A stretch of DNA of 17,456 nucleotides. Source: an archaeon. Lineage in GTDB: Archaea; EX4484-52; B79-G9. Below the pieces are notes generated by a model. It was not told the DNA's origin. It saw only the letters and a program-made list of their open reading frames with translations, and searched no databases. Position numbers and translations under genes: made by a program. Shown here piece after piece: positions 2,787 through 17,456 of the stretch (positions are counted from its first letter, which is position 1; each line of letters begins with the position of its first letter). The stretch is taken from positions 1 to 17,456 of the forward strand of contig JBDRKP010000007.1 in assembly GCA_043813875.1 (NCBI GenBank). The letters run 5' to 3'.

Positions 2787-2803
2787 ACACGCAAGCATAA
2801 GTA

Positions 2804-2844
2804 TTTAAATATTTACATCATTATAGTGTAATACAAAGTATTAC
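2804..2844 (+). promoter_or_regulatory. TATA box plus palindromic operator upstream of the RHH fusion-pgk-gap operon
   Basis: TTTAAATA (2804-2811), then the perfect inverted repeat GTAATAC-AAA-GTATTAC (2828-2844) over the expected transcription start. Confidence 0.6.
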
Positions 2845-2875
2845 CTTTAGATAAAATGTTTTAGTGTGTGTTACT

Positions 2876-3718
2876 ATGGCAGGCAAAGACAGAATATCAA
2901 TAACTTTGGATGAAGACCTAGTCACACGCATAGACCGCATGGTGGATGGATATAATGTCAAGAACAGATCGCATGCAATCGAAAAAATACTGATGAAAAC
3001 GCTCAACGAACAGTCTATCACGCAAGCCATAATCCTTTGCGGCGGAATCGGCCAGAAACTGAAGCCGATCACCTACGAACTGCCGAAACCGATGATCCCT
3101 GTGTGCGATAAGCCGGTGCTCGAGTATATAATATGCCACCTGAAATCAGAGGGCATCACAGACATAATCCTTGTTGTCGATTACAAGCATGAGAAGATAA
3201 TATCATATTTCGGGAAAGGAAGAGCTCTCGGCGTGAATATCCGATATATCATCGAAGACAGACCGCATGGAACGGCAGGTTTCCTGAAATCGGCAAAAGA
3301 CATGATCAATGACACGTTCCTCCTCTTGTACGGAGATGTCTTATCAAAGATAGATATACATGATATGTTAACAACCCACAGGAGCAACAAAGTGCTTGCG
3401 ACAATGGCGCTTACTACTACTTCTGATACCACATCTTTCGGAGTGGCCAAGCTCAAGGGTGAAAAGGTCACGGGTTTCATAGAGAAGCCATCACCCAATG
3501 AATCGCCAAGCAACCTGATAAATGCAGGAGTGTTCATACTGGAACCGGAACTCATGGATAAGGTTCCGACAAGCGTAGATGATAAAATCATGATCGAGAA
3601 GGTATTTGAAGAGCTTGCGAAGCAGGGCAAGCTTGCCGGTTATGTCTATGACGGGAAATGGTTCCACCTGGACTCTCCCGAAGTATATGAAAGAGCTATA
3701 AAGGAGTGGGATAAATAA
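2876..3718 (+). CDS. Ribbon-helix-helix (CopG/NikR-like) domain fused to a sugar-phosphate nucleotidyltransferase domain
   Basis: N-terminal RISITLDEDLVTRIDRMV...NRSHAIEKIL (RHH), then AIILCGGIGQKLKPITYELPKPMIPV, GTAG, YGDVL, FIEKP, INAGVFIL. ATG at 2876 preferred over GTG at 2864. Confidence 0.85.
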   Translation: MAGKDRISITLDEDLVTRIDRMVDGYNVKNRSHAIEKILMKTLNEQSITQAIILCGGIGQKLKPITYELPKPMIPVCDKPVLEYIICHLKSEGITDIILVVDYKHEKIISYFGKGRALGVNIRYIIEDRPHGTAGFLKSAKDMINDTFLLLYGDVLSKIDIHDMLTTHRSNKVLATMALTTTSDTTSFGVAKLKGEKVTGFIEKPSPNESPSNLINAGVFILEPELMDKVPTSVDDKIMIEKVFEELAKQGKLAGYVYDGKWFHLDSPEVYERAIKEWDK

Positions 3719-4962
3719 TGCAGTTCCTTAAAATGGATGACTTCGAAGTTAGCGGAAAAACAATACTTGTAAGAACAGACCTGAATTCGCCCCTGGATGA
3801 AAACAATCAGATCATAGACAATATCAGGATTAAACGGCACTCTGAAACGATCCGTGAGCTATCAGATAAAGGCGCGAAAGTTGTTGTCATGGCGCACCAG
3901 GGCAGAGCGGGCGATTCTGACCTGACCAGGCTTGATGCGCACGCGAGGGCACTTTCAAAGCATGTAGGAAAGATGGTAACGTACATCGATGATATTTTCG
4001 GGACACATGCCAAGAATTCTATCAAAGGACTCAGGGACGGCGATATCATACTCCTTGAGAATGTGAGATTCAATGCAGAAGAGACAGGATTGAAAGAGAA
4101 TCACCATGAGGCGCATATGGTGCGCGAACTCAGGCCGCTTATTGATTATTATGTGAATGACGCATTCGCTGCTTCGCACAGGGCGCATGTATCACTTGTC
4201 GGATTCCCGGAGGTGATTCCCAGCTTTGCGGGCAGGGTGCTGCAAAAGGAACTCGAGATACTGTCAAAGGTCTCGAAAAACCCTGAGAGGCCTGCGATAC
4301 TTTCTGTCGGCGGCAGCAAGATAGACGACACGATGAAAGTGACGGAGCAGATTTTGAGCGCAGGGGCATGCGACAAGGTGCTGACATCCGGCCTTGTCGG
4401 GCTGGTGTTCCTGGTCGCAAGCGGAGAAGAACTCGGCGAGACCACATATAATCTCCTGGTCAAGAAAAAGGCGGATCTTGAGATTCCAAGGGCAAAAAGA
4501 CTGCTTGCCAAGTATGGAAATAAGATCGAGATGCCTGTCGATGTTGCAATATGCGTCAATGATAACAGGATCGAGATGCCGGTAAGGAATCTTCCGTCTG
4601 ACTTTCCCATCCTTGATATCGGCAAAGAGACGATTAAAAAATACAAATCAATACTTAATGAAGCGGCAACTATTGTCGGTAACGGACCTGCGGGGATGTT
4701 TGAGAAGAAGGGATTTGAGAAAGGCACATACGAGCTTCTGAAAGCGATGCATGAATGCAAGGCTTTCACGGTTCTTGGAGGAGGACATCTTGCGCTCGCT
4801 GCCGAGCAGATGGATCTTCTTGATAAACTGGCTCATGTCTCCACCGGAGGCGGGGCATACATACTGTTCATGGCAGGCGAGAGACTCCCGGCGGTGGATG
4901 CGCTTGTCAATGCTGCACAGAAGCAGACGCCATTGATTGTAAGGTCGCAGTATAATGGTTAA
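3718..4962 (+). CDS. pgk: Phosphoglycerate kinase
   Basis: GKTILVRTDLNSP, AHQGR, LLENVRF, NDAFAASHR, GPAGMFE, STGGGA. TAATG overlap with the upstream gene. Confidence 0.97.
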   Translation: MQFLKMDDFEVSGKTILVRTDLNSPLDENNQIIDNIRIKRHSETIRELSDKGAKVVVMAHQGRAGDSDLTRLDAHARALSKHVGKMVTYIDDIFGTHAKNSIKGLRDGDIILLENVRFNAEETGLKENHHEAHMVRELRPLIDYYVNDAFAASHRAHVSLVGFPEVIPSFAGRVLQKELEILSKVSKNPERPAILSVGGSKIDDTMKVTEQILSAGACDKVLTSGLVGLVFLVASGEELGETTYNLLVKKKADLEIPRAKRLLAKYGNKIEMPVDVAICVNDNRIEMPVRNLPSDFPILDIGKETIKKYKSILNEAATIVGNGPAGMFEKKGFEKGTYELLKAMHECKAFTVLGGGHLALAAEQMDLLDKLAHVSTGGGAYILFMAGERLPAVDALVNAAQKQTPLIVRSQYNG

Positions 4963-5003
4963 TTCTAGGGAGCATATAAGATAAGGAATAAGGAGTGATG
5001 AAG

Positions 5004-6026
5004 ATGATAGCGGTAGCTGTAAACGGATACGGGACCATAGGCAAGCGCGTCGCAGACGCGGTGTCAAAGCAGGATGATATGAAAATCGTCGGGGTCGTGA
5101 AGACAAGGCCTACGCAAGAAGCAAGGATGGCGATAGAGAATGGCTATCCTTTGTATGCGAATAGCGCAGAGAATAAGCAGGCATTCCTGGATGCGGGGCT
5201 CGCGGTCGAAGGCACGCTTGATGATCTTTTGGAAAAGGCAGATATTGTTGTAGATTGTACGCCAGGGAAGGTCGGCGCCATGAACAAGGCGATCTATGAG
5301 AAAGCGGGGGTAAAGGCCATATTCCAGGGCGGCGAGAAGGCAAAGACAGCACAGGCATCGTTTAATGCGCAGAGCAATTACGCAGAGAGCCTGGGCAAGG
5401 ATTTCGTGCGCGTGGTGTCGTGCAATACGACGGGATTGTGCAGGACTTTGAGTGCGATTGAGAAGAAGTTCGGGATTGCCAAGGTACGTGCGACTTTGAT
5501 CAGGCGAGGGCCGGACCCGGGAGATTCGAAGAAAGGGCCGGTGAATGCGATTGTTCCTGATCCGGCTACTGTTCCCAGCCATCACGGGCCGGATGTCAAT
5601 ACGATTTTCCCGAATATGGATATCATGACGAGCGCAGTCATTGTTCCGACAACGCTCATGCATCTTCATACTGTGAATGTGGAGCTCAAGGATGCTGCAA
5701 ATACCGAGCAGGTCAAGGAGGTTTTCCGCAACACTCCAAGAGTAATACTTGTCAAGGCAAGCGAGGGATTCACATCCACTGCAGAGATCATGGAATATGC
5801 GCGCGACAGAGGCACGAAGAGAGGGGATCTCAATGAGATTGCCGTGTGGGATGAGAGCATAAATGTGATCGGAAAAGAATTGTTCTATATCCAGGCAATC
5901 CATCAGGAGTCTGATGTGGTTCCCGAGAATGTCGACTGCATACGGGCCATGATGGGGACTATCACTGACGCGAAGGCTTCTATCAGGAAGACGGATGAGG
6001 CGCTTGGGCTTAAGATATGGTGGTAG
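5004..6026 (+). CDS. gap: Archaeal type II glyceraldehyde-3-phosphate dehydrogenase
   Basis: [17 protein letters not shown], catalytic [32 protein letters not shown]-like GGAGTGA at 4992-4998. Alternative starts at 4995 and 4998. Confidence 0.97.
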
Positions 6027-6054: not shown

Positions 6055-6185
6055 TATAGACCTTAATTCTTCTGAGTTTATGAAAAGATTTAAAAAATGA
6101 ATACTCTTTAGTTGTAACATCTAGCGATTTCATTCAGTTGGCAGATAATCTGCTTATCAAATGTGTTTTTATCAAGGTTGTTAAG

Positions 6186-7682
6186 ATGCCGCGTTCAATG
6201 ACAAATATTTCCAGATGTGAATATATGATTGAGGGTATGGGAATAGGTGATGCAGCGGCAGCGCCTTATGAACATCTTTCACGAAACCAGATAGAAGATA
6301 TGCTTGATCTTACGGGATATCCCGAAAGGCCAGGTGACCGCTCGATGCGATTTCCAGGAAAATATACAGACGATACGCAAATGGCTGTTGCTGTAGCTGA
6401 ATTACTCTATTCTGGCAAAGAGTTTAACCGTGATAATCTTACATCTCATATATACAAAGCCTATCACAGGGACAAGCGACCCGGCTATTCCAAATATACT
6501 ACAGAGGCACTTGAATCTCCAACAACTGAAGAATATATGGCAAATATCAAGCACTCTGACAGAAACGGAGCGATTCCACGAAATGTCCCGATTGGGGTCC
6601 TAAGAAATACAGAAAATGTAATCAATTATGCTATAATAAACAGCGAACTGGATCACAATACTCCTCAGAGCATAACATCTTCTGTTTTTGTCGCACTTGC
6701 ATCCCATTATATGTTCCATGAACTGGGAAAGCCACAGAACATATACCGCTTTTGCATAGATAAGATGAGGGAGTATCATGCAGAGTCAGCGTTTGACGAA
6801 GATACGATTGAATATCTACGATGCGTCTCTTTGATGGATGAAGTGGATGAAAACCTGCTTTTTGGAGCTAACTCCATTAGTCACGGTGTGCCGGTAGATG
6901 CCAAAAGAACGGCTGGCGCCGTGCTGTACATACTTACAAATCACTCAGACGAGGCATATGAAACTCTTGAGGAATCAATACTTCTTGGGGGAGACACGGA
7001 TACTGTTGCTGCGACATGTCTTGGCATGGTTGCGAGCTGGAAAGGGCTTGAAGGATTACCGAAATCTCTGATAGATAATTTTGAAGATGGAGAATACGGC
7101 ATCAAGTATCTTCGCGATACTGGCAAGAAACTTGCCACGATCCTACCCATAGAACTAGAGAATTTTGAACGACGCGATCGTCCTGAACTGCGCAAGTATA
7201 AATTAACCCATGGACTTGACGGCATTATGCAACCAATAGATATGATTTATATGGTAGAATTGATGAAAAGACAGATGGAAATGGTGCCATACAAGCCAGG
7301 TGACTACATATTGGGAATAGAATCTACAGGATATTTTGCTGCTGCTGCTGCTGCCTTGGCAACGGGCCTTAAACTGGTCAGCGCAAAAAAAACAGATCTT
7401 GTAGTTCCTGAAGATATAAACGTAATAAGATTCGAAGAGCCCAGCAGCCCGCGCGAGAAGCTATTCATATATGGACTCTCTCCAGGCGATAGAGTCATAA
7501 TCATAGATGATGAGATAAGAACAGCAAAAACATCCGAGAACTTATATCATGCTTTAAGTGAGCAAGGCATTGAGGTTGTGGCTATTGTCAACCCAATAGA
7601 ATCTCTCAGATACGGCGCGAATGAAAAAATCAAGAATCTAGGTTTTGATCTAATCAGCCACACAAAGCATAATCTGCCATGA
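6186..7682 (+). CDS. ADP-ribosylglycohydrolase (ARH/DraG family) fused to a C-terminal type I phosphoribosyltransferase domain
   Basis: ARH motifs GIGDAAAAPYE, YTDDTQMA, NGAIPR, GGDTDTVAA. PRTase motifs ILGIESTG, SAKK, GDRVIIIDDEIRTAKT. Start uncertain (ATG 6186 or 6198; the track uses TTG 6138). Confidence 0.85.
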   Translation: MPRSMTNISRCEYMIEGMGIGDAAAAPYEHLSRNQIEDMLDLTGYPERPGDRSMRFPGKYTDDTQMAVAVAELLYSGKEFNRDNLTSHIYKAYHRDKRPGYSKYTTEALESPTTEEYMANIKHSDRNGAIPRNVPIGVLRNTENVINYAIINSELDHNTPQSITSSVFVALASHYMFHELGKPQNIYRFCIDKMREYHAESAFDEDTIEYLRCVSLMDEVDENLLFGANSISHGVPVDAKRTAGAVLYILTNHSDEAYETLEESILLGGDTDTVAATCLGMVASWKGLEGLPKSLIDNFEDGEYGIKYLRDTGKKLATILPIELENFERRDRPELRKYKLTHGLDGIMQPIDMIYMVELMKRQMEMVPYKPGDYILGIESTGYFAAAAAALATGLKLVSAKKTDLVVPEDINVIRFEEPSSPREKLFIYGLSPGDRVIIIDDEIRTAKTSENLYHALSEQGIEVVAIVNPIESLRYGANEKIKNLGFDLISHTKHNLP

Positions 7683-7725
7683 GACATACAGGAAAACAGA
7701 AAAAGGATTGTGTTCCAATAAGGTC

Positions 7726-8187
7726 ATGCACATAAATCAGCTGTCTTTAAAGGAAATAAGCACTTCTCTGTTTTTTGGTGCTTTGCTTTATTTTGTTAAT
7801 GTCAGTTTCATCTCGTGGATGTTTGCGGCTTATCCTGAGACGCAGGCGCTTGTTTTCGGGAAGGGGACGTGGTGGCTTGGTGCGGCTCTTTCAGTGAAAG
7901 TGGTCTATGTCGGACTGATCGGGCCGGTGTTTGAGGAGTTGGTTTTTCGGCGCGCGCTTTTGGGGTATTTTGCCGGCAGGGGGCAGCAGATCTTCGGGCT
8001 TGCTCTATCTACTATACTTTTCGGGGGATATCACCTGCTTTTCGGGTGGGGGATGCTCAAGGCAGTGCTCATGATAGTTCCGGGACTTGTGTTCGGGGTC
8101 ATGTTCCTTAAATACGGGTTCAAGGGATGCCTAACGTGTCATCTGTCGAATAATATCCTGGCGGTGTGGGCGCTTGCTAATAGTTAA
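7726..8187 (+). CDS. CPBP family (CAAX/Abi) intramembrane glutamic endopeptidase
   Basis: EELVFR (EExxxR), FGGYH (FxxxH) and HLSNN (HxxxN) within several hydrophobic helices. ATG 7726 preferred over TTG 7708. Confidence 0.9.
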   Translation: MHINQLSLKEISTSLFFGALLYFVNVSFISWMFAAYPETQALVFGKGTWWLGAALSVKVVYVGLIGPVFEELVFRRALLGYFAGRGQQIFGLALSTILFGGYHLLFGWGMLKAVLMIVPGLVFGVMFLKYGFKGCLTCHLSNNILAVWALANS

Positions 8188-8203
8188 ATGAGGGAGAGGA
8201 GAT

Positions 8204-9097
8204 CTATTTCAGATATCTTTTGTTCTCTATTACATATCTTCTCAAAAACCACTGCAAGAATATGAACTCATCTTTTTTTACCTGTGACCTTTCCAGCGCA
8301 TTGTAGTAGCTGCTTCTTTTTTCATAAGGAATATTAAGCAATGGATAATCTTTTTTCTTTAATACAAAGTTCATCATCAGCCTCGAAATTCTTCCATTGC
8401 CGTCTCCAAAGGGGTGTATTGTCACAAACTTATGGTGGACCAATGCCGCTAATTCAACTGCAGGAATATTGTCCCTATTCCTGGTGTACCAATTGAAGAA
8501 TTCGTTTATCAGGGGATAAATTTCAGCAGGAAATGGCGGAATGAATCTGCTGCCGAAAATTGCTACCTGATGCTGTCTCAGTTTTCCTGCTATTTCGGGT
8601 TTTGTGGCCCCAAAGAGGTTTTTGTGCCATCTCAGAACTATCTGTAGGGACAAATCTTTATTGTATTCCAACATCTCACTGAAAACTTTTTTATGCGCTT
8701 CAGTTTCTTTTATGTCGGAAAGAGGTCTCTTCCCGGGACTAGTGCCGTTTTCAAGCAAATCAGCGGTTTCCCTTAATGTCAGCTTGGAACCTTCGATTCT
8801 TTGAGTGTCAGAAGTAAATCTTATCGCAAAAATATGATCTTCTTTTTCTTTTAACGTGTCGGGCATCGATTCCTGTTCAAGAGAATAGTTGTTTTTAATT
8901 TTATTGAGCAATGAGCGCCATTTTTCTGTATAAATTTCAGTAAGAAATTCTTTTTTTAAAATGTCTATGGCTGAGGCAGCGGGCAAGATTTTTCCCAGAT
9001 ATTTCTCTTTCTTTTTTATGTTACCATCAACTCTTATTGAGTGTTCAAGATAATAATATTCCTGATTTCCAATAATTTTTTTCGTTATGATTACCAT
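8204..9097 (-). CDS. Fic family protein (class II, N-terminal inhibitory motif) with an extra basic N-terminal domain
   Basis: Canonical HPFGDGNGRISR and inhibitory TQRIEG (S/T-xxx-E-G/N). N-terminal KKIIGNQEYYYLEHSIRVDGNIKKKEKYLGK. ATG at 9097. Confidence 0.93.
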   Translation of the reverse strand: MVIITKKIIGNQEYYYLEHSIRVDGNIKKKEKYLGKILPAASAIDILKKEFLTEIYTEKWRSLLNKIKNNYSLEQESMPDTLKEKEDHIFAIRFTSDTQRIEGSKLTLRETADLLENGTSPGKRPLSDIKETEAHKKVFSEMLEYNKDLSLQIVLRWHKNLFGATKPEIAGKLRQHQVAIFGSRFIPPFPAEIYPLINEFFNWYTRNRDNIPAVELAALVHHKFVTIHPFGDGNGRISRLMMNFVLKKKDYPLLNIPYEKRSSYYNALERSQVKKDEFIFLQWFLRRYVIENKRYLK

Positions 9098-9102
9098 AAA
9101 CA

Positions 9103-9162
9103 ATCTTACCCATACAAATTTAAATATTTATCCGTTTTTTGTTAAAATGTAGGGGGTAAGAT
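9103..9162. promoter_or_regulatory. 9-bp inverted repeat bracketing the putative Fic promoter
   Basis: ATCTTACCC (9103-9111) and GGGTAAGAT (9154-9162), with a 42-bp AT-rich spacer containing TATA-like sequence (9116-9131). Confidence 0.45.
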
Positions 9163-13660: not shown

Positions 13661-16600
13661 TTATTTACTTTTTGAGCGGTTACGGCGTGTATGCGGTCTT
13701 ACTTTTCTTTGGGAGCCAGATGACTTCCCATATAAGAGAATTGCGGCGAGTGCAACTATCAATGCAATAGCTAAAAGCCTGAGGCCGGATGTGTTTGAAA
13801 ATAGAGATGCATCCCTGTTTATTATGATTACGGACATCTCATCATATTTATTCCCGTAGACATCGTCAGGACCTATTATAAGGTCGTAGCTCCCGGTCCT
13901 GCCGGCAAATACTTCTATCGGGACATATCTTTCCTCGCGGGGTCCAAGCTTTATGTCCATGTCACGACGGCCAGTGTTTTCAAACTGTATCAGGTTCCTG
14001 AATGTCTGGTCTGAACTGCCTATGTGGAGCGGCACTATGACGCTGTTGTCTTTCGGATTCTTGACGTATACGGTGATACGGCTTCTGGTGCCCATATTTA
14101 TCGTGCTCTTTTTACTGCTTGTGAAATAAACAACCGCGTCGGTGATTACTTCGGTTACAAGGGGCTGTTGAAGAACGAAATCCTGTGTCTTGGTCGCGGC
14201 TGATACTACCTGTGTGTTGGCAGAGCTTGCGATGTAGCCTATTTTTGAAGCTGTGACCTGGTATGTCGAGGGAGGGATGTTTAAGGTATACTGACCCGAA
14301 ATGCCGGTATAGTTGATATAGCTGTGCGTGGCGTTCGATGCGGTTATCAACACATTGTCCAGAGGGCCTGTGGCATTAGACACCGTCCCTTCTATTGTGC
14401 CGTTGCCTGCAGGGAGTGATGCAGGAAACCAGGTGATGTTCCAGAGGTATATCTCTGGCGTGACGGAGGAATCTGTTGTTGATAATACTGAATGAAGCCT
14501 GACTGATGGCGCGGTGGATGCGCAGGATGATATGTCGTCACCGTTACCGCTGATGAGCGGGCATAAGACGACGCTGTTGCTTGCGTTCAGTATCTCGTAG
14601 GTTATGGATGTGCCTGCTGGTGTCGTGTTCGATGCGTAGAACCGGTCCCAACCACTTATGCTTGCGGGAGTTATATCAACGGAGGTCAGTTCGCCGCGGG
14701 TTATGTCGCCGGAAGGAGATGAGATTGTTATTTCAGGTTCCGGGGAGACGTATTTTCGGACAATAGCAAGATCGTTGTAGAAGCCGGGTCTTGAATCCCA
14801 ATATGACACTATGCCTATCTCGCTCATGTTGAGCATATAGGGTGTTGAAAATATCTGCGCCCCGTCGATAAAGCCGTCTGTCTTACCGGCAAAGATGCGC
14901 CACATGAATTCATGCCAACCTATACTTCGCGGGATGCCTGTGTCCGAATAGAGCGAGCCGATATCAAGCCTTATCCTGTAGGTGTAAGTTGAAGGATAGG
15001 TGGAATAAACACCGATATATGTCTGAACAGGATTATTCCTAGTGATCAGGAAATGCCTGTATCCGACTATACTGGCGCCGTCATCGTAGAAATACATCCT
15101 GACTTCACGGTCTGTCTCTTCGGCGGGGAAACTTTTTAGCAAAGCTGTGTCTCCATCATCGAAGGTCTGGTAGACTTCCGCGGAATATGAACCGCTCTCT
15201 GCCTGGGCCATGACCCGGTTTATCTCTGATGTTGTGGAGGTTGCCGTTTGTGTCCATTTGCTAAGATCCACTTCAAAATCGTCAAAGAACTCGAATGTCG
15301 CGTATCCATCGCTGATGTTGGTTACAGCCGGGTTGCCGTAGTAGAGGTAAACCGGCGTGATTTCGCCGCTTTTTATGAGTGGGACTTTTACCCAGTCGAT
15401 GTTGTCGTTCTCGCTCCAGTGGCTTAAGACGCTGGTCGCGCTTGTGTTTATGTACCTGTAATCCTCGTCTGCGTAATGATTCGCGAGGCCTGCCTCGTAG
15501 TGGGCTCTTATCTCGTCGGGGCTCAAGGTCCGGTTGTAGATGCGGACTTCGTCGATTGTGCCGTTGGAAAAACCTTGATTGCCTTCTCTTGCTCCGATAA
15601 ACCAATTCAGGCCATTCTCACACTGAGATGACGGAACCGATGTTGTGTTTTCCTTAGCAATAGAACCGTCGACATAAAGTCTTATGTAACCAGAGGGTTC
15701 ATATACTCCTGCCAAATGAATCCACTCATCGGCAGGTACGACAAGTCCGCCGCTTGATTGAATGATATTACAGCTTGTACCCCCTACTCTGAATTCTACT
15801 GTTCCATCGACATTTCCACTAAGATCATAGGATCTGTGAGTTGAATCTCCTGTTTTCGTAACAAAGTAAGGGTTTTCTGTGCCGTTCCATTTTACCCATG
15901 CTTCAAGAGTGATCGCACCTGTCAGTTGTAATGAAGAAGGATTTCCGATATCAACGTAGTCATCAATACCGTCAAATTTCAGGGCGTTTCCAACAATACC
16001 ACCAGTCCATTGAGGCTGTGATGGCGCAGAGGGTAATACAGCATCATTTCCGTTGCCTGAACTGTCCTTTGCTGTCGTGCCCGCGTTCTCGCTGAAATGC
16101 CATGAGCCGACGAGATTTTTTTCTACCTTTATCTGGTAGTCGGTGAGGTCGCCAACAGGATTGCTTACAGCATATATTGCCTGAATCTCTGATGCTGACA
16201 GGGCGTAGTTGTAGATACGGACCTCGTCGATTGTGCCATCGAGATAGCTCTGCAGAGGATAGATTATCAGATTGTCACTTCGAACGGTCTTGGCTCCGAG
16301 TGCTATTGGCTCATAGTTACCTGTAAGACCTCCGGTATAGGAATCGGTGTCGACTTCTGTCCCGTCGATATAAAGTTTCATGCCGTCGCTGCCGAAGGTA
16401 TATGCTACATGATACCATGTGTCTGCAAGGATTGTTGAGGTTGATGAGTCCAGAATATATTCGGTGACTGTGTTTTGTTGACGCACGTAAACATATGAGG
16501 CAGGATCAATACTTATTGTGAGATGACCGCCGGTGTCGAGACCCTCTGAATCTTTTGAGATGAGACCCTGATCTTTTGTTGGATCGTCTGTCTTAAACCA

Positions 16601-17456
16601 GAATTCTACTGTTCCATCGCTTATCAAAAAGTCGTCTGAATGAGGTATCTCTACAAAATCACCGCCGTCAAATTCTAATGCTTGTCCTATCTTGCCTGTG
16701 GTCCAGGTAGGACGTGTGGATAATGTCGAGTTGCCTAGTGTCCCATCGTTTCCCATGCCTGAGCTGTCTGCTGCGGTTGTGCCTGAGCCTTCGGAAAAAC
16801 TCCATGAGCCTGCAAGATTATTGCTTAAACCTTTTTTATAGAGAGCCATTACCTCTGACGGAGTCAGAGTCCTGTTCCAGATGCCGATCTCGTCGATTGT
16901 GCCGTTGAAATAATCACCGGCGTATGTCTCACTTGAATGTCTTCTTCCTATTGACCACATATCCGAAGAACTCACAAGATAACTGGTTCCTGCAGACCAT
17001 TCGTCTATTTTTACTCCATTATGATAGATTTTTGCTATTCCTGACGGACGGTCCCAAGTCAGTACGCCATGATACCAAACCCCTTTATTTAGCGTCTCAC
17101 CGATAGGCCGATCCCAAACGCCATTATCATGTAATTGGACGAAATAGTTTCCAGAATCTGCGATTCCAAAAGCAGGTCTTCCCCAATGCTGATCAAAAAA
17201 TCTTGCTTTATTCAAACCAACTGGAAAACTGTCTGGCTTGAACCATACAGAAATAGTCAATCCGTCCCATGTATCTGTCGGAAGGATTGCACTGCCTTTT
17301 ATAACGTCACCCACGCCGTCAAAATGGATTGCAGTGCCTATTTTTCCTGTTGTCCATGTAGGACAGTAGGTATTGAAACATGTCGCTGTCCCGTTCTTCA
17401 GTGTACCTTCATTGTTATTGGCTGAACTGTCCTGTGCTGTCACGCCTACGTTTTCG
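13661..17456 (-). CDS. Large cell-surface protein, 5'-truncated: at least 3 LamG-like domains, a DUF2341-like domain, a carboxypeptidase-regulatory-like domain, a C-terminal TM helix and basic tail
   Basis: Repeated LxGSWxFSExxGTTAxDSSG...FDG...GTIDEVRIYN units; LTDYQIKV, WVKVP, YLYYGNP, FFDDFE; GTIEGTV...YQVTASKIGY; LLAIALIVALAAILLY then a K/R tail. The frame is open to the window edge (ENVGVTAQDSS is itself part of a repeat unit). Confidence 0.9.
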   Translation of the reverse strand, partial: ENVGVTAQDSSANNNEGTLKNGTATCFNTYCPTWTTGKIGTAIHFDGVGDVIKGSAILPTDTWDGLTISVWFKPDSFPVGLNKARFFDQHWGRPAFGIADSGNYFVQLHDNGVWDRPIGETLNKGVWYHGVLTWDRPSGIAKIYHNGVKIDEWSAGTSYLVSSSDMWSIGRRHSSETYAGDYFNGTIDEIGIWNRTLTPSEVMALYKKGLSNNLAGSWSFSEGSGTTAADSSGMGNDGTLGNSTLSTRPTWTTGKIGQALEFDGGDFVEIPHSDDFLISDGTVEFWFKTDDPTKDQGLISKDSEGLDTGGHLTISIDPASYVYVRQQNTVTEYILDSSTSTILADTWYHVAYTFGSDGMKLYIDGTEVDTDSYTGGLTGNYEPIALGAKTVRSDNLIIYPLQSYLDGTIDEVRIYNYALSASEIQAIYAVSNPVGDLTDYQIKVEKNLVGSWHFSENAGTTAKDSSGNGNDAVLPSAPSQPQWTGGIVGNALKFDGIDDYVDIGNPSSLQLTGAITLEAWVKWNGTENPYFVTKTGDSTHRSYDLSGNVDGTVEFRVGGTSCNIIQSSGGLVVPADEWIHLAGVYEPSGYIRLYVDGSIAKENTTSVPSSQCENGLNWFIGAREGNQGFSNGTIDEVRIYNRTLSPDEIRAHYEAGLANHYADEDYRYINTSATSVLSHWSENDNIDWVKVPLIKSGEITPVYLYYGNPAVTNISDGYATFEFFDDFEVDLSKWTQTATSTTSEINRVMAQAESGSYSAEVYQTFDDGDTALLKSFPAEETDREVRMYFYDDGASIVGYRHFLITRNNPVQTYIGVYSTYPSTYTYRIRLDIGSLYSDTGIPRSIGWHEFMWRIFAGKTDGFIDGAQIFSTPYMLNMSEIGIVSYWDSRPGFYNDLAIVRKYVSPEPEITISSPSGDITRGELTSVDITPASISGWDRFYASNTTPAGTSITYEILNASNSVVLCPLISGNGDDISSCASTAPSVRLHSVLSTTDSSVTPEIYLWNITWFPASLPAGNGTIEGTVSNATGPLDNVLITASNATHSYINYTGISGQYTLNIPPSTYQVTASKIGYIASSANTQVVSAATKTQDFVLQQPLVTEVITDAVVYFTSSKKSTINMGTRSRITVYVKNPKDNSVIVPLHIGSSDQTFRNLIQFENTGRRDMDIKLGPREERYVPIEVFAGRTGSYDLIIGPDDVYGNKYDEMSVIIINRDASLFSNTSGLRLLAIALIVALAAILLYGKSSGSQRKVRPHTRRNRSKSK

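Follow-up and report, generated by a model that had tools for sequence, protein, structure and literature searches.

A ribbon-helix-helix protein with a degenerate sugar nucleotidyltransferase domain as a candidate metabolite-sensing repressor of an archaeal pgk-gap operon

To our knowledge, gene regulation is poorly understood in DPANN archaea, a group that is uncultured or difficult to grow and encodes very few regulators. In Bacillus, the SorC-family protein CggR is an autorepressor that heads the cggR-gapA-pgk operon and responds to fructose 1,6-bisphosphate (FBP) through an enzyme-related sugar-phosphate sensor. PutA is a domain of the ribbon-helix-helix (RHH) type fused to proline-catabolic enzyme domains, a 'trigger enzyme' that autoregulates its own operon and whose signal is the flavin redox state together with membrane binding. 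NikR, the nickel-responsive RHH protein of E. coli (1q5v/2hzv), is described as a ligand-dependent repressor with the operator GTATGA-N16-TCATAC (PMC7055735). GfcR of Haloferax volcanii is presented as a helix-turn-helix (HTH) regulator of sugar metabolism, including GAPDH, which is derived from a phosphoribosyltransferase (PRT) and binds pathway intermediates (PMC10838023). GMPPA is characterized as a catalytically inactive paralog of GDP-mannose pyrophosphorylase (PMC9168903) that binds GDP-mannose to regulate GMPPB (PMC11228364). Here we analyze a stretch of 17,456 nucleotides from an archaeon of the GTDB lineage EX4484-52 (contig JBDRKP010000007.1; 'the window'), in which the genes for phosphoglycerate kinase (pgk) and glyceraldehyde-3-phosphate dehydrogenase (gap) are headed by the gene of an RHH protein, P0003, with a sugar nucleotidyltransferase (NTase) domain. 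We consider it probable that P0003 is a one-component transcription factor, namely a ligand-sensing autorepressor of a gluconeogenic regulon. Most likely, a sugar metabolite would be the signal on which it silences the operon it belongs to, along with further genes for building sugars.

Residues 6–41 of P0003 match the Pfam family RHH_1 with 23.4 bits, above the curated threshold of this RHH superfamily profile (20.5 bits), and residues 51–263 match NTP_transferase (PF00483, E 8.6e-40). For the N-terminal 50 residues the sole sequence match in the PDB is E. coli NikR (E 0.0021). Residues 5–47 align to NikR 2–44, DRISITLDEDL pairing with QRVTITLDDDL, and the recognition strand reads K4-D-R-I-S-I-T-L11. 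The alignment is confined to this region, and the rest of the protein belongs to PF00483 instead of the C-terminal domain of NikR. In the AlphaFold2 model (mean pLDDT 89.3; 78–96 across the first 40 residues) an extended N-terminus (1–12) is followed by helices at 13–22 and 31–45 and thus shows the beta-alpha-alpha topology of an RHH, the strands of which pair in the dimer only, so that a monomer model cannot display the pairing. A prediction of a two-copy complex scored 0.36 (mark 0.42). Foldseek superimposes the model on 8x7s, VTC1 and GMPPB with TMq values of 0.72–0.76, and the human GMPPA/GMPPB complex ranks among the top structural matches; residues 1–43 are covered by none of the 60 solved chains listed. 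P0003 stays below the equivalog cutoffs of NCBIfam, the best entry being TIGR03992 with 167 against 292 bits. The TAA stop of the regulator overlaps the ATG of pgk in a TAATG at 3716–3720, and gap, for which an alternative ATG exists at 4998, follows. The fusion of a CopG/NikR-like RHH to an NTP-transferase and its coupling to pgk and gap had both been put forward in the original prediction, and the profile matches, the NikR match and the coordinates agree with it. A toxin-antitoxin reading of the combination of RHH and 'nucleotidyltransferase' was discarded, because the domain has the sugar-NTase fold PF00483 and not the MNT/Pol-beta fold.

It had also been claimed that the signature loop (GGIGQKL) and the C-terminal motif WFHLD are degenerate, while PKP (residues 70–72), YGD (152–154) and EKP (203–205) are kept. 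Inspection of the sequence and a phmmer alignment to Arabidopsis VTC1 (7x8j) bear this out. In terms of the residue roles given for VTC1 in PMC9168903, Q60 and K61 replace Thr12 and Arg13, which contact pyrophosphate (PPi) or citrate, and H264 replaces Asp219, which together with Asp111 is called 'catalytically critical'. Kept are D154 (Asp111), K71 (Lys23, an alternative PPi contact), G132 and E127 (Gly85 and residue 80, guanine contacts), and N216 and G189 (Asn173 and Gly146, mannose contacts). E203-K204-P205 is retained as well, and E241-K242 probably correspond to Glu195-Lys196 of VTC1, in a region where the alignment is ambiguous. P0003 has the fold, the EKP motif and the sugar and base contacts of PF00483 enzymes and lacks the GxGTR loop and the complete pair of acidic residues. 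Judged by these residues, the pocket looks fit for ligand binding but compromised for chemistry.

A word-indexed search with P0003 yielded 908 homologs at E <= 0.001 among 1839 candidates, and the best 120 of them were aligned. These 120 proteins are 261–318 residues long, cover at least 95% of the query including the RHH, carry source names of Aenigmarchaeota, Woesearchaeota, Altiarchaeota and Nanoarchaeota, and are annotated merely as sugar nucleotidyltransferase or hypothetical. In a scan of one genome per species, at least 588 pattern matches were found, at least 557 of which encode a relative; 80 loci were kept. The RHH-NTase fusion is therefore a large DPANN/Altiarchaeota family with at least 557 confirmed stretches among species genomes. 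Within the alignment the RHH residues D20, R31, S32 and E36 are invariant (120/120), and E203-K204-P205, N216, G189, E127 and G132 are invariant or nearly so. Position 60 is Thr in 92 homologs and Gln in 7; position 61 is Arg in 100, Lys in 8 and gapped in 6; and at position 264, Asp stands in 93, His in 13 and Asn in 8. The degenerate forms are limited to the closest relatives of P0003: P0003–P0009 have GQK, GQR or GQS in the loop together with WFH, P0010–P0012 have G-A-K/D, P0013–P0017 have lost 7 residues of the loop, and P0018, P0019 and P0056 carry other substitutions. Most members of the family keep GxGTR and WxDxG and precede PGM/PMM genes. With regard to the comparison of fused and unfused homologs proposed initially, the degeneracy is real in P0003, but since most fused members have intact motifs, it does not set fused proteins apart from unfused ones and marks one derived clade.

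With the RHH alone (residues 1–48), the word-indexed database yielded 6 close homologs only. Among 1.84 billion representatives, the top phmmer matches of the 50-residue RHH were giant adhesins with Cna_B repeats, which were rejected as spurious repeat matches; the remaining ones were standalone RHH proteins, RHH-NTase proteins or fragments of these, with no alternative sensor domain. As an observation in its own right, four proteins of about 200–212 residues (P0194, P0200, P0222 and P0251) have the same type of RHH, followed by about 160 residues without a recognisable Pfam domain. Either a very strongly diverged NTase sensor or a sensor domain of another kind may make up this part.

The decay of the motifs coincides with a change of neighbours. 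A tblastn search with PGK in the 80 loci gave matches only in the four loci with degenerate motifs (L003–L006), in all of which pgk lies directly downstream; in none of the 76 canonical loci was there a PGK match within 5 kb. After pgk, gap follows in the three loci that are long enough, L003 ending inside pgk. In the 78 loci that could be placed, the same-strand downstream neighbour is PGM/PMM in 36 (38 open reading frames), a second, unfused NTase in 7 and a small MGMT-like protein in another 7. Among the genes that diverge upstream are those for glpX FBPase, class II and DeoC-type aldolases, PGI, a GHMP kinase and a polysaccharide flippase; in L009, L026, L045 and L056, an upstream gap is encoded on the opposite strand. 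Orthologs with at least 49% identity occur in 14 of 40 genomes of relatives, all in two taxonomic families. The neighbourhood is well conserved there, with a PGK match immediately downstream in 13 of the 14; the exception (L094) comes from a genus with a very divergent PGK. In genome G020, from another genus, GDH is followed by a divergently oriented operon of loop-deleted regulator, pgk, gap and an aminotransferase::PEPCK fusion. Its genes are 2–33 bp apart, and the last one (G020:C57:65-2953; L154) joins an aminotransferase and an ATP-dependent PEPCK in one frame of 962 residues.

A quick IQ-TREE analysis of 94 rows (91 family members and three labelled outgroups, namely two unfused NTases as root and the second RHH-NTase paralog of the same genome) places all 15 pgk-linked genes in one group, for which a single change of label is needed. 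This group is nested in a clade of 19 rows (SH-aLRT 98), which also contains three other loop-degenerate sequences, two without the loop Arg and a third with Lys, as well as the second paralog on a long branch. The rest of the tree is mostly canonical and PGM-linked. From this placement, the loss of the motifs and the linkage to pgk are derived traits with a common origin in time. Throughout the 15 pgk-linked genes the loop reads GQK, GQR, GAD, GTT or GIG or is shortened by 7 residues, whereas EKP, YGD and NAG are invariant; the Asp of WxDxG is lost in part of the clade, including P0003. A separate subclade of 7 rows (L025, L033, L039, L054, L055, L066 and L074) has a canonical loop and has changed WxDTG to WxPTD or WLPAG, with loss of the Asp. 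Here 4 of the 7 have an unfused NTase as their direct downstream neighbour, in L033 and L054 it is found two genes upstream, and L074 has PGM downstream. This subclade may represent a second, independent step from enzyme to sensor.

The promoter of the operon contains a TATA-like box, TATTTAAATA, and 16–18 bp past it lies the candidate operator GTAATACAAAGTATTAC (GTAATAC-AAA-GTATTAC), a perfect palindrome whose half-site hexamers TAATAC and GTATTA lie 9 bp apart from centre to centre. The palindrome had been pointed out before and proves to be a conserved promoter element. Its significance follows from this conservation, since a perfect 7-N3-7 palindrome alone is unremarkable (3 in the window, 246 in the genome, 0.15 per kb). 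The core of 15 nt, TAATACAAAGTATTA (TAATAC-AAA-GTATTA), is found exactly in 12 of 15 orthologous loci (the own genome and 14 relatives), at protein identities down to 49%, and with one mismatch in two others (L092, L095); the intergenic DNA around it is unalignable between genera. In 13 of the 14 loci having the site, the operator lies 2–19 bp after a TATA-like box, and it ends 14–52 bp ahead of the ATG. The genome scan that had been suggested detected two exact copies of the core in 1.64 Mb, one at the operon and one in an intergenic region of contig C11, and none in the reversed control.

Related sites occur throughout the family. The upstream DNA of canonical members contains recurrent direct repeats TCATAC-N4-TCATAC and some inverted pairs TCATAC-N3-GTATGA. 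Pairs of T[CA]ATAC number 45 in the 11,447 bp that make up the 150-bp regions upstream of these genes (36 of 76 canonical loci) versus 5 in the 620,183 bp elsewhere in the same loci, two of these at -192 and -197, which is an enrichment of about 400-fold. TCATAC is identical to the half-site hexamer of NikR, from which the TAATAC of the window differs by one base, and the canonical strand (E/K)R(V/I)T(L/I)TL resembles QRVTITL of NikR. Similar sites precede RHH-NTase genes whether PGM/PMM, a second NTase or pgk follows, and the conserved hexamer pairs fit the footprint expected for RHH dimers. The second base of the hexamer also appears to follow residue 8 of the strand: with Ser there, 15 loci have the TAATAC type and none the TCATAC type (2 ties, 3 without a site), and with Thr, 43 loci have TCATAC and 5 TAATAC (5 ties, 17 without a site).

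The genome of the window encodes a second RHH-NTase paralog (G000:C73:18813-19577, minus strand; L085 1459-2289), a protein of 276 residues with the loop CGGDEDKQ and without EKP. It is more degenerate than P0003 (Pfam NTP_transferase, E 2e-12). Its gene is divergent from a canonical NTase and an epimerase-like gene, with a carbamoyltransferase downstream, and the layout is kept in six genus-mates. Between two TATA boxes it has a direct repeat ATCCTAC-N3-ATCCTAC that has no second copy in the genome. In two genomes from two other families, G019 has repeats of TCCTAC and G037 a near-repeat (TCCTAC followed by TCTTAC). Since the repeats are shared with the RHH gene and not with the cargo genes, each RHH-NTase protein presumably binds its own promoter.

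Loosely defined paired sites occur 12 times in the genome, 7 of them intergenic. One of the 7 is the promoter of the regulator-pgk-gap operon. Three others lie at genes of the same part of metabolism: GTATGAC-AAA-GTATGAC overlaps the ATG of PPDK, ATAATAC-AAA-GTATGAT is located 33 bp upstream of an aminotransferase-PEPCK(ATP) operon, and a cluster of GTATGA/TAATAC precedes enolase, which we regard as a tentative member. A perfect ATCATAC-AAA-GTATGAT adjoining a TATA box (C30:15444; L111) and the exact TAATAC-TTT-GTATTA on contig C11 (C11:2868; L002) have no identifiable gene just downstream; small open reading frames or RNAs under the same control could be found there. The last one stands ahead of an MNT-HEPN pair. 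A site with 2 mismatches lies just before the unfused NTase on C60, and the second PGM has a single half-site upstream. In the same genome no such sites were found upstream of pyruvate kinase, TIM and one PGM. The PPDK site recurs as GTATTA-N4-GTATGA after the TATA box in G002 and G003 and as a half-site only in G006 and G007. An operator at PEPCK in one genus and PEPCK within the operon in another are the usual signature of a single regulon. PPDK, PEPCK, enolase, pgk and gap span the path from pyruvate or oxaloacetate to triose phosphate, and the controlled flux therefore looks gluconeogenic. P0003 had been predicted to regulate lower glycolysis; the link to a central carbon operon stands, but the PPDK and PEPCK sites point to the opposite direction.

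We propose the following mechanism. RHH proteins are obligate dimers that bind repeated short DNA sites, and because of its fold class the NikR-like RHH of P0003 should dimerise. Each dimer would read one TAATAC hexamer, so that two dimers would fill the 17-bp palindrome with its hexamers 9–10 bp apart. The palindrome is situated directly past the TATA box and over the expected transcription start; bound P0003 would hence block recruitment of RNA polymerase and repress regulator, pgk and gap. Repression by occlusion of the start site is an established logic of archaeal repressors. The C-terminal domain would provide a non-catalytic pocket for a hexose-derived metabolite such as an NDP-sugar or sugar-1-phosphate, and a ligand in the former active site might alter DNA affinity or tetramer formation. 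The promoters of PPDK, aminotransferase-PEPCK and enolase would be under the same control, which would cover the branch from pyruvate or oxaloacetate to triose phosphate. For the response we slightly favour end-product feedback, with the sugar ligand as co-repressor, over an inducer model.

The retained pocket residues could also mean that P0003 is still an active sugar-1-phosphate NTase in which Lys61 stands in for Arg, with an RHH that serves autoregulation as in PutA and a linkage to pgk-gap that reflects co-expression of enzymes. D154, E203-K204, K71, G-G, GTAG and NAG are all retained, the ancestral canonical members look catalytically competent and carry operators too, and the close homolog P0005 has Gln-Arg in the loop. 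Some residual pyrophosphorylase activity in P0003 is thus possible, given that Lys can replace Arg and that D154 and the E-K dyads are kept, and for P0003 alone the case for catalytic loss is moderate, as Lys could partly take over from Arg. Across the clade, the loop deletions make this case a strong one. In P0003 all three of the PPi-loop residues Thr and Arg and the equivalent of Asp219 are changed, and the sister lineages linked to pgk have GAD, GTT, GIG or the deletion, which indicates relaxed selection on catalysis across the clade. Furthermore, separate, unfused canonical NTases are encoded in the genome at C60 and C73. We therefore regard a bifunctional trigger enzyme as unlikely. An even less probable alternative is that the domain senses an NTP or NDP, the energy status or an unrelated small molecule, or that the protein is an activator or dual regulator. 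The loop-deleted members of the clade may bind no nucleotide at all, which would affect the class of ligand. The placement of the sites does not suit repression throughout the family, since most canonical members have their pairs upstream of the TATA box, but in the pgk-linked clade the operator lies just downstream of the TATA-like box. Sugar and sugar-phosphate contacts (N216, G189, E203-K204) are invariant while the nucleotide and PPi loop decays or is deleted; a sugar-phosphate ligand consequently fits better than an NTP.

Several observations weigh against the regulon and against the assignment of its operator to P0003. The 12 paired sites compare with a mean of 3.2 (range 0–6) in Markov-2 simulations and with 8 in the reversed sequence, and 5 of the 12 fall in coding sequence or ends of insertion sequences (IS). 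Since this enrichment is weak, the regulon claim rests on the location of the sites, not on their number. PPDK was found in no more than 6 of 41 genomes, which belong to a single genus, and PEPCK in only 2 of 41, the second being G020. The enolase site is partly conserved, with near-sites in G005 and G020, weak ones in G002 and G003 and none in other genera. The core is absent from one of the 15 orthologous loci (L096). The co-variation of Ser/Thr with A/C comprises no more than 2 contrasts that are phylogenetically independent; these agree in direction, but with so few the pattern is suggestive only. The palindrome might finally be the site of another factor or a structural promoter element, with P0003 not controlling pgk-gap. 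Co-occurrence alone cannot prove which protein binds, and the genome also codes for HTH proteins of the TrmB family, for which these promoters could be targets; an argument from the absence of TrmB was dropped for this reason. Related hexamer pairs, however, precede RHH-NTase genes whatever the downstream cargo, the family hexamer is the half-site of NikR, which among solved RHH proteins is the closest, the variant of the half-site goes with the residue in the RHH strand, and a separate, different repeat accompanies the second paralog. We thus consider control by a different factor very improbable and retain P0003 as an autorepressor as the preferred explanation.

As a wider and more tentative proposal, which appears possible to us rather than probable, the RHH-NTase family might constitute the principal transcriptional control of sugar-phosphate metabolism in DPANN archaea and Altiarchaeota. 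Ancestral members would be active trigger enzymes that repress their own NTase-PGM/PMM operon via TCATAC pairs. At least one lineage would have become a pure sensor, rewired by a one-base change of the half-site and a Thr-to-Ser change of the strand, and would exert end-product feedback by an NDP-sugar or hexose-1-phosphate on gluconeogenesis through pgk, gap, enolase, PPDK and PEPCK.

A widespread protein that databases name merely sugar nucleotidyltransferase thus has a NikR-type DNA-binding domain and a conserved candidate operator and is linked to central carbon genes. One family would span the range from an enzyme with regulator to a pseudoenzyme sensor, in which the loss of catalytic residues can be matched to a switch of the regulated genes. 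Metabolic reconstructions should not take proteins of the degenerate clade as capacity for NDP-sugar biosynthesis. The single strand residue that tracks a single operator base is a possible example of a recognition code and would be useful for RHH engineering. With an operator of 17 bp and a short list of candidate ligands, the recombinant regulator is directly approachable.

The features of the locus are compiled in the table. The 827 bp of gene-poor DNA 5' of the operon (2049–2875) are single-copy in the genome; the plus strand has an open frame of 73 residues without a start, and the minus strand has a frame which, read from its ATG, gives a small protein of about 55 residues that contains two CxxC pairs and is zinc-ribbon-like. 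Beyond it, on the minus strand, lie a gene for an AAA_15/AAA_21 (AbiEii-like) ATPase of 399 residues (849–2048) and one for a protein of 212 residues without a Pfam match (211–849), which could be a defence gene pair. Directly 3' of gap, 6138–9103 encodes a protein of 514 residues with an ADP-ribosylglycohydrolase domain, an Rce1-like protein of the CAAX protease family and, on the minus strand, a Fic-domain protein. The product of 13661–17443 (minus strand), 1260 residues long, contains three Laminin_G_3/ConA-like domains, DUF2341 and a CarboxypepD_reg domain and probably resides at the cell surface. No Rfam family reached its gathering score in the window. Among the sequencing runs listed for the locus there was no RNA run, and the DNA runs had small word shares only.

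Table. Positions in the window of the regulator-pgk-gap operon, its promoter elements and the domains and degenerate motifs of P0003.
Feature	Position	Strand	Basis
TATA-like box TATTTAAATA of the operon promoter	2803..2812	+	
Candidate operator GTAATACAAAGTATTAC, perfect palindrome	2828..2844	no strand	
Regulator gene, P0003, 280 aa	2876..3718	+	ORF, RHH-nucleotidyltransferase
RHH domain of P0003, residues 1-48	2876..3019	+	Pfam RHH_1, model helices, NikR alignment
Sugar-1-phosphate nucleotidyltransferase-fold domain, residues 50-280, proposed ligand sensor	3023..3715	+	PF00483, Foldseek
Degenerate signature loop GGIGQKL, residues 56-62 (canonical GGxGTRL)	3041..3061	+	
WFHLD, residues 262-266 (canonical WFDTG)	3659..3673	+	
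pgk, phosphoglycerate kinase, 414 aa	3718..4962	+	Pfam PGK, E 3.3e-119
gap, archaeal type II phosphorylating GAPDH, 340 aa	5004..6026	+	NCBIfam NF003251, E 1.9e-160; TIGR01546

In comparison with the described systems, P0003 shares with NikR an N-terminal RHH with nearly the same recognition strand and the combination of an RHH with a C-terminal ligand domain, and the hexamer GTATGA/TCATAC of NikR is that of the canonical family members. The C-terminal domain of NikR, however, is a tetrameric nickel-binding domain and that of P0003 has a sugar nucleotidyltransferase fold, the half-sites of NikR are 16 bp apart compared with 3–4 bp in the RHH-NTase family, and the ligand of the latter is presumably an organic metabolite. 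For the canonical members with intact motifs, PutA is the best analogue, since it likewise has an N-terminal RHH on an enzyme; its enzyme folds and its signal are unrelated, and P0003 appears to have lost catalysis.

CggR, which had served as the model for the proposed function, resembles P0003 in operon position and logic. There is no homology between the two. CggR consists of a winged helix and a SorC sensor, and P0003 has no SorC-type or winged-helix match in Pfam or NCBIfam; CggR exerts glycolytic control, in contrast to the genes at the sites described here, which point to gluconeogenesis. GfcR, too, is archaeal; as P0003 would do, it regulates central sugar metabolism with a protein whose origin is an enzyme fold. 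It differs in having an HTH instead of an RHH and a PRT instead of an NTase fold, in activating catabolism and in its occurrence in haloarchaea and not in DPANN archaea. GMPPA has the NTase fold and sets a precedent in that an inactive NTase senses a product, but it acts allosterically on a partner enzyme, contains a beta-helix domain and has no DNA-binding domain. The original prediction knew of no characterised regulator with the architecture of P0003, and a full-text literature search, whose coverage excluded most subscription journals, likewise found no paper on an RHH-sugar-NTase regulator. As a regulator, P0003 would belong to a known class, the one-component regulators with enzyme-derived sensor domains, with an architecture that appears to be new.

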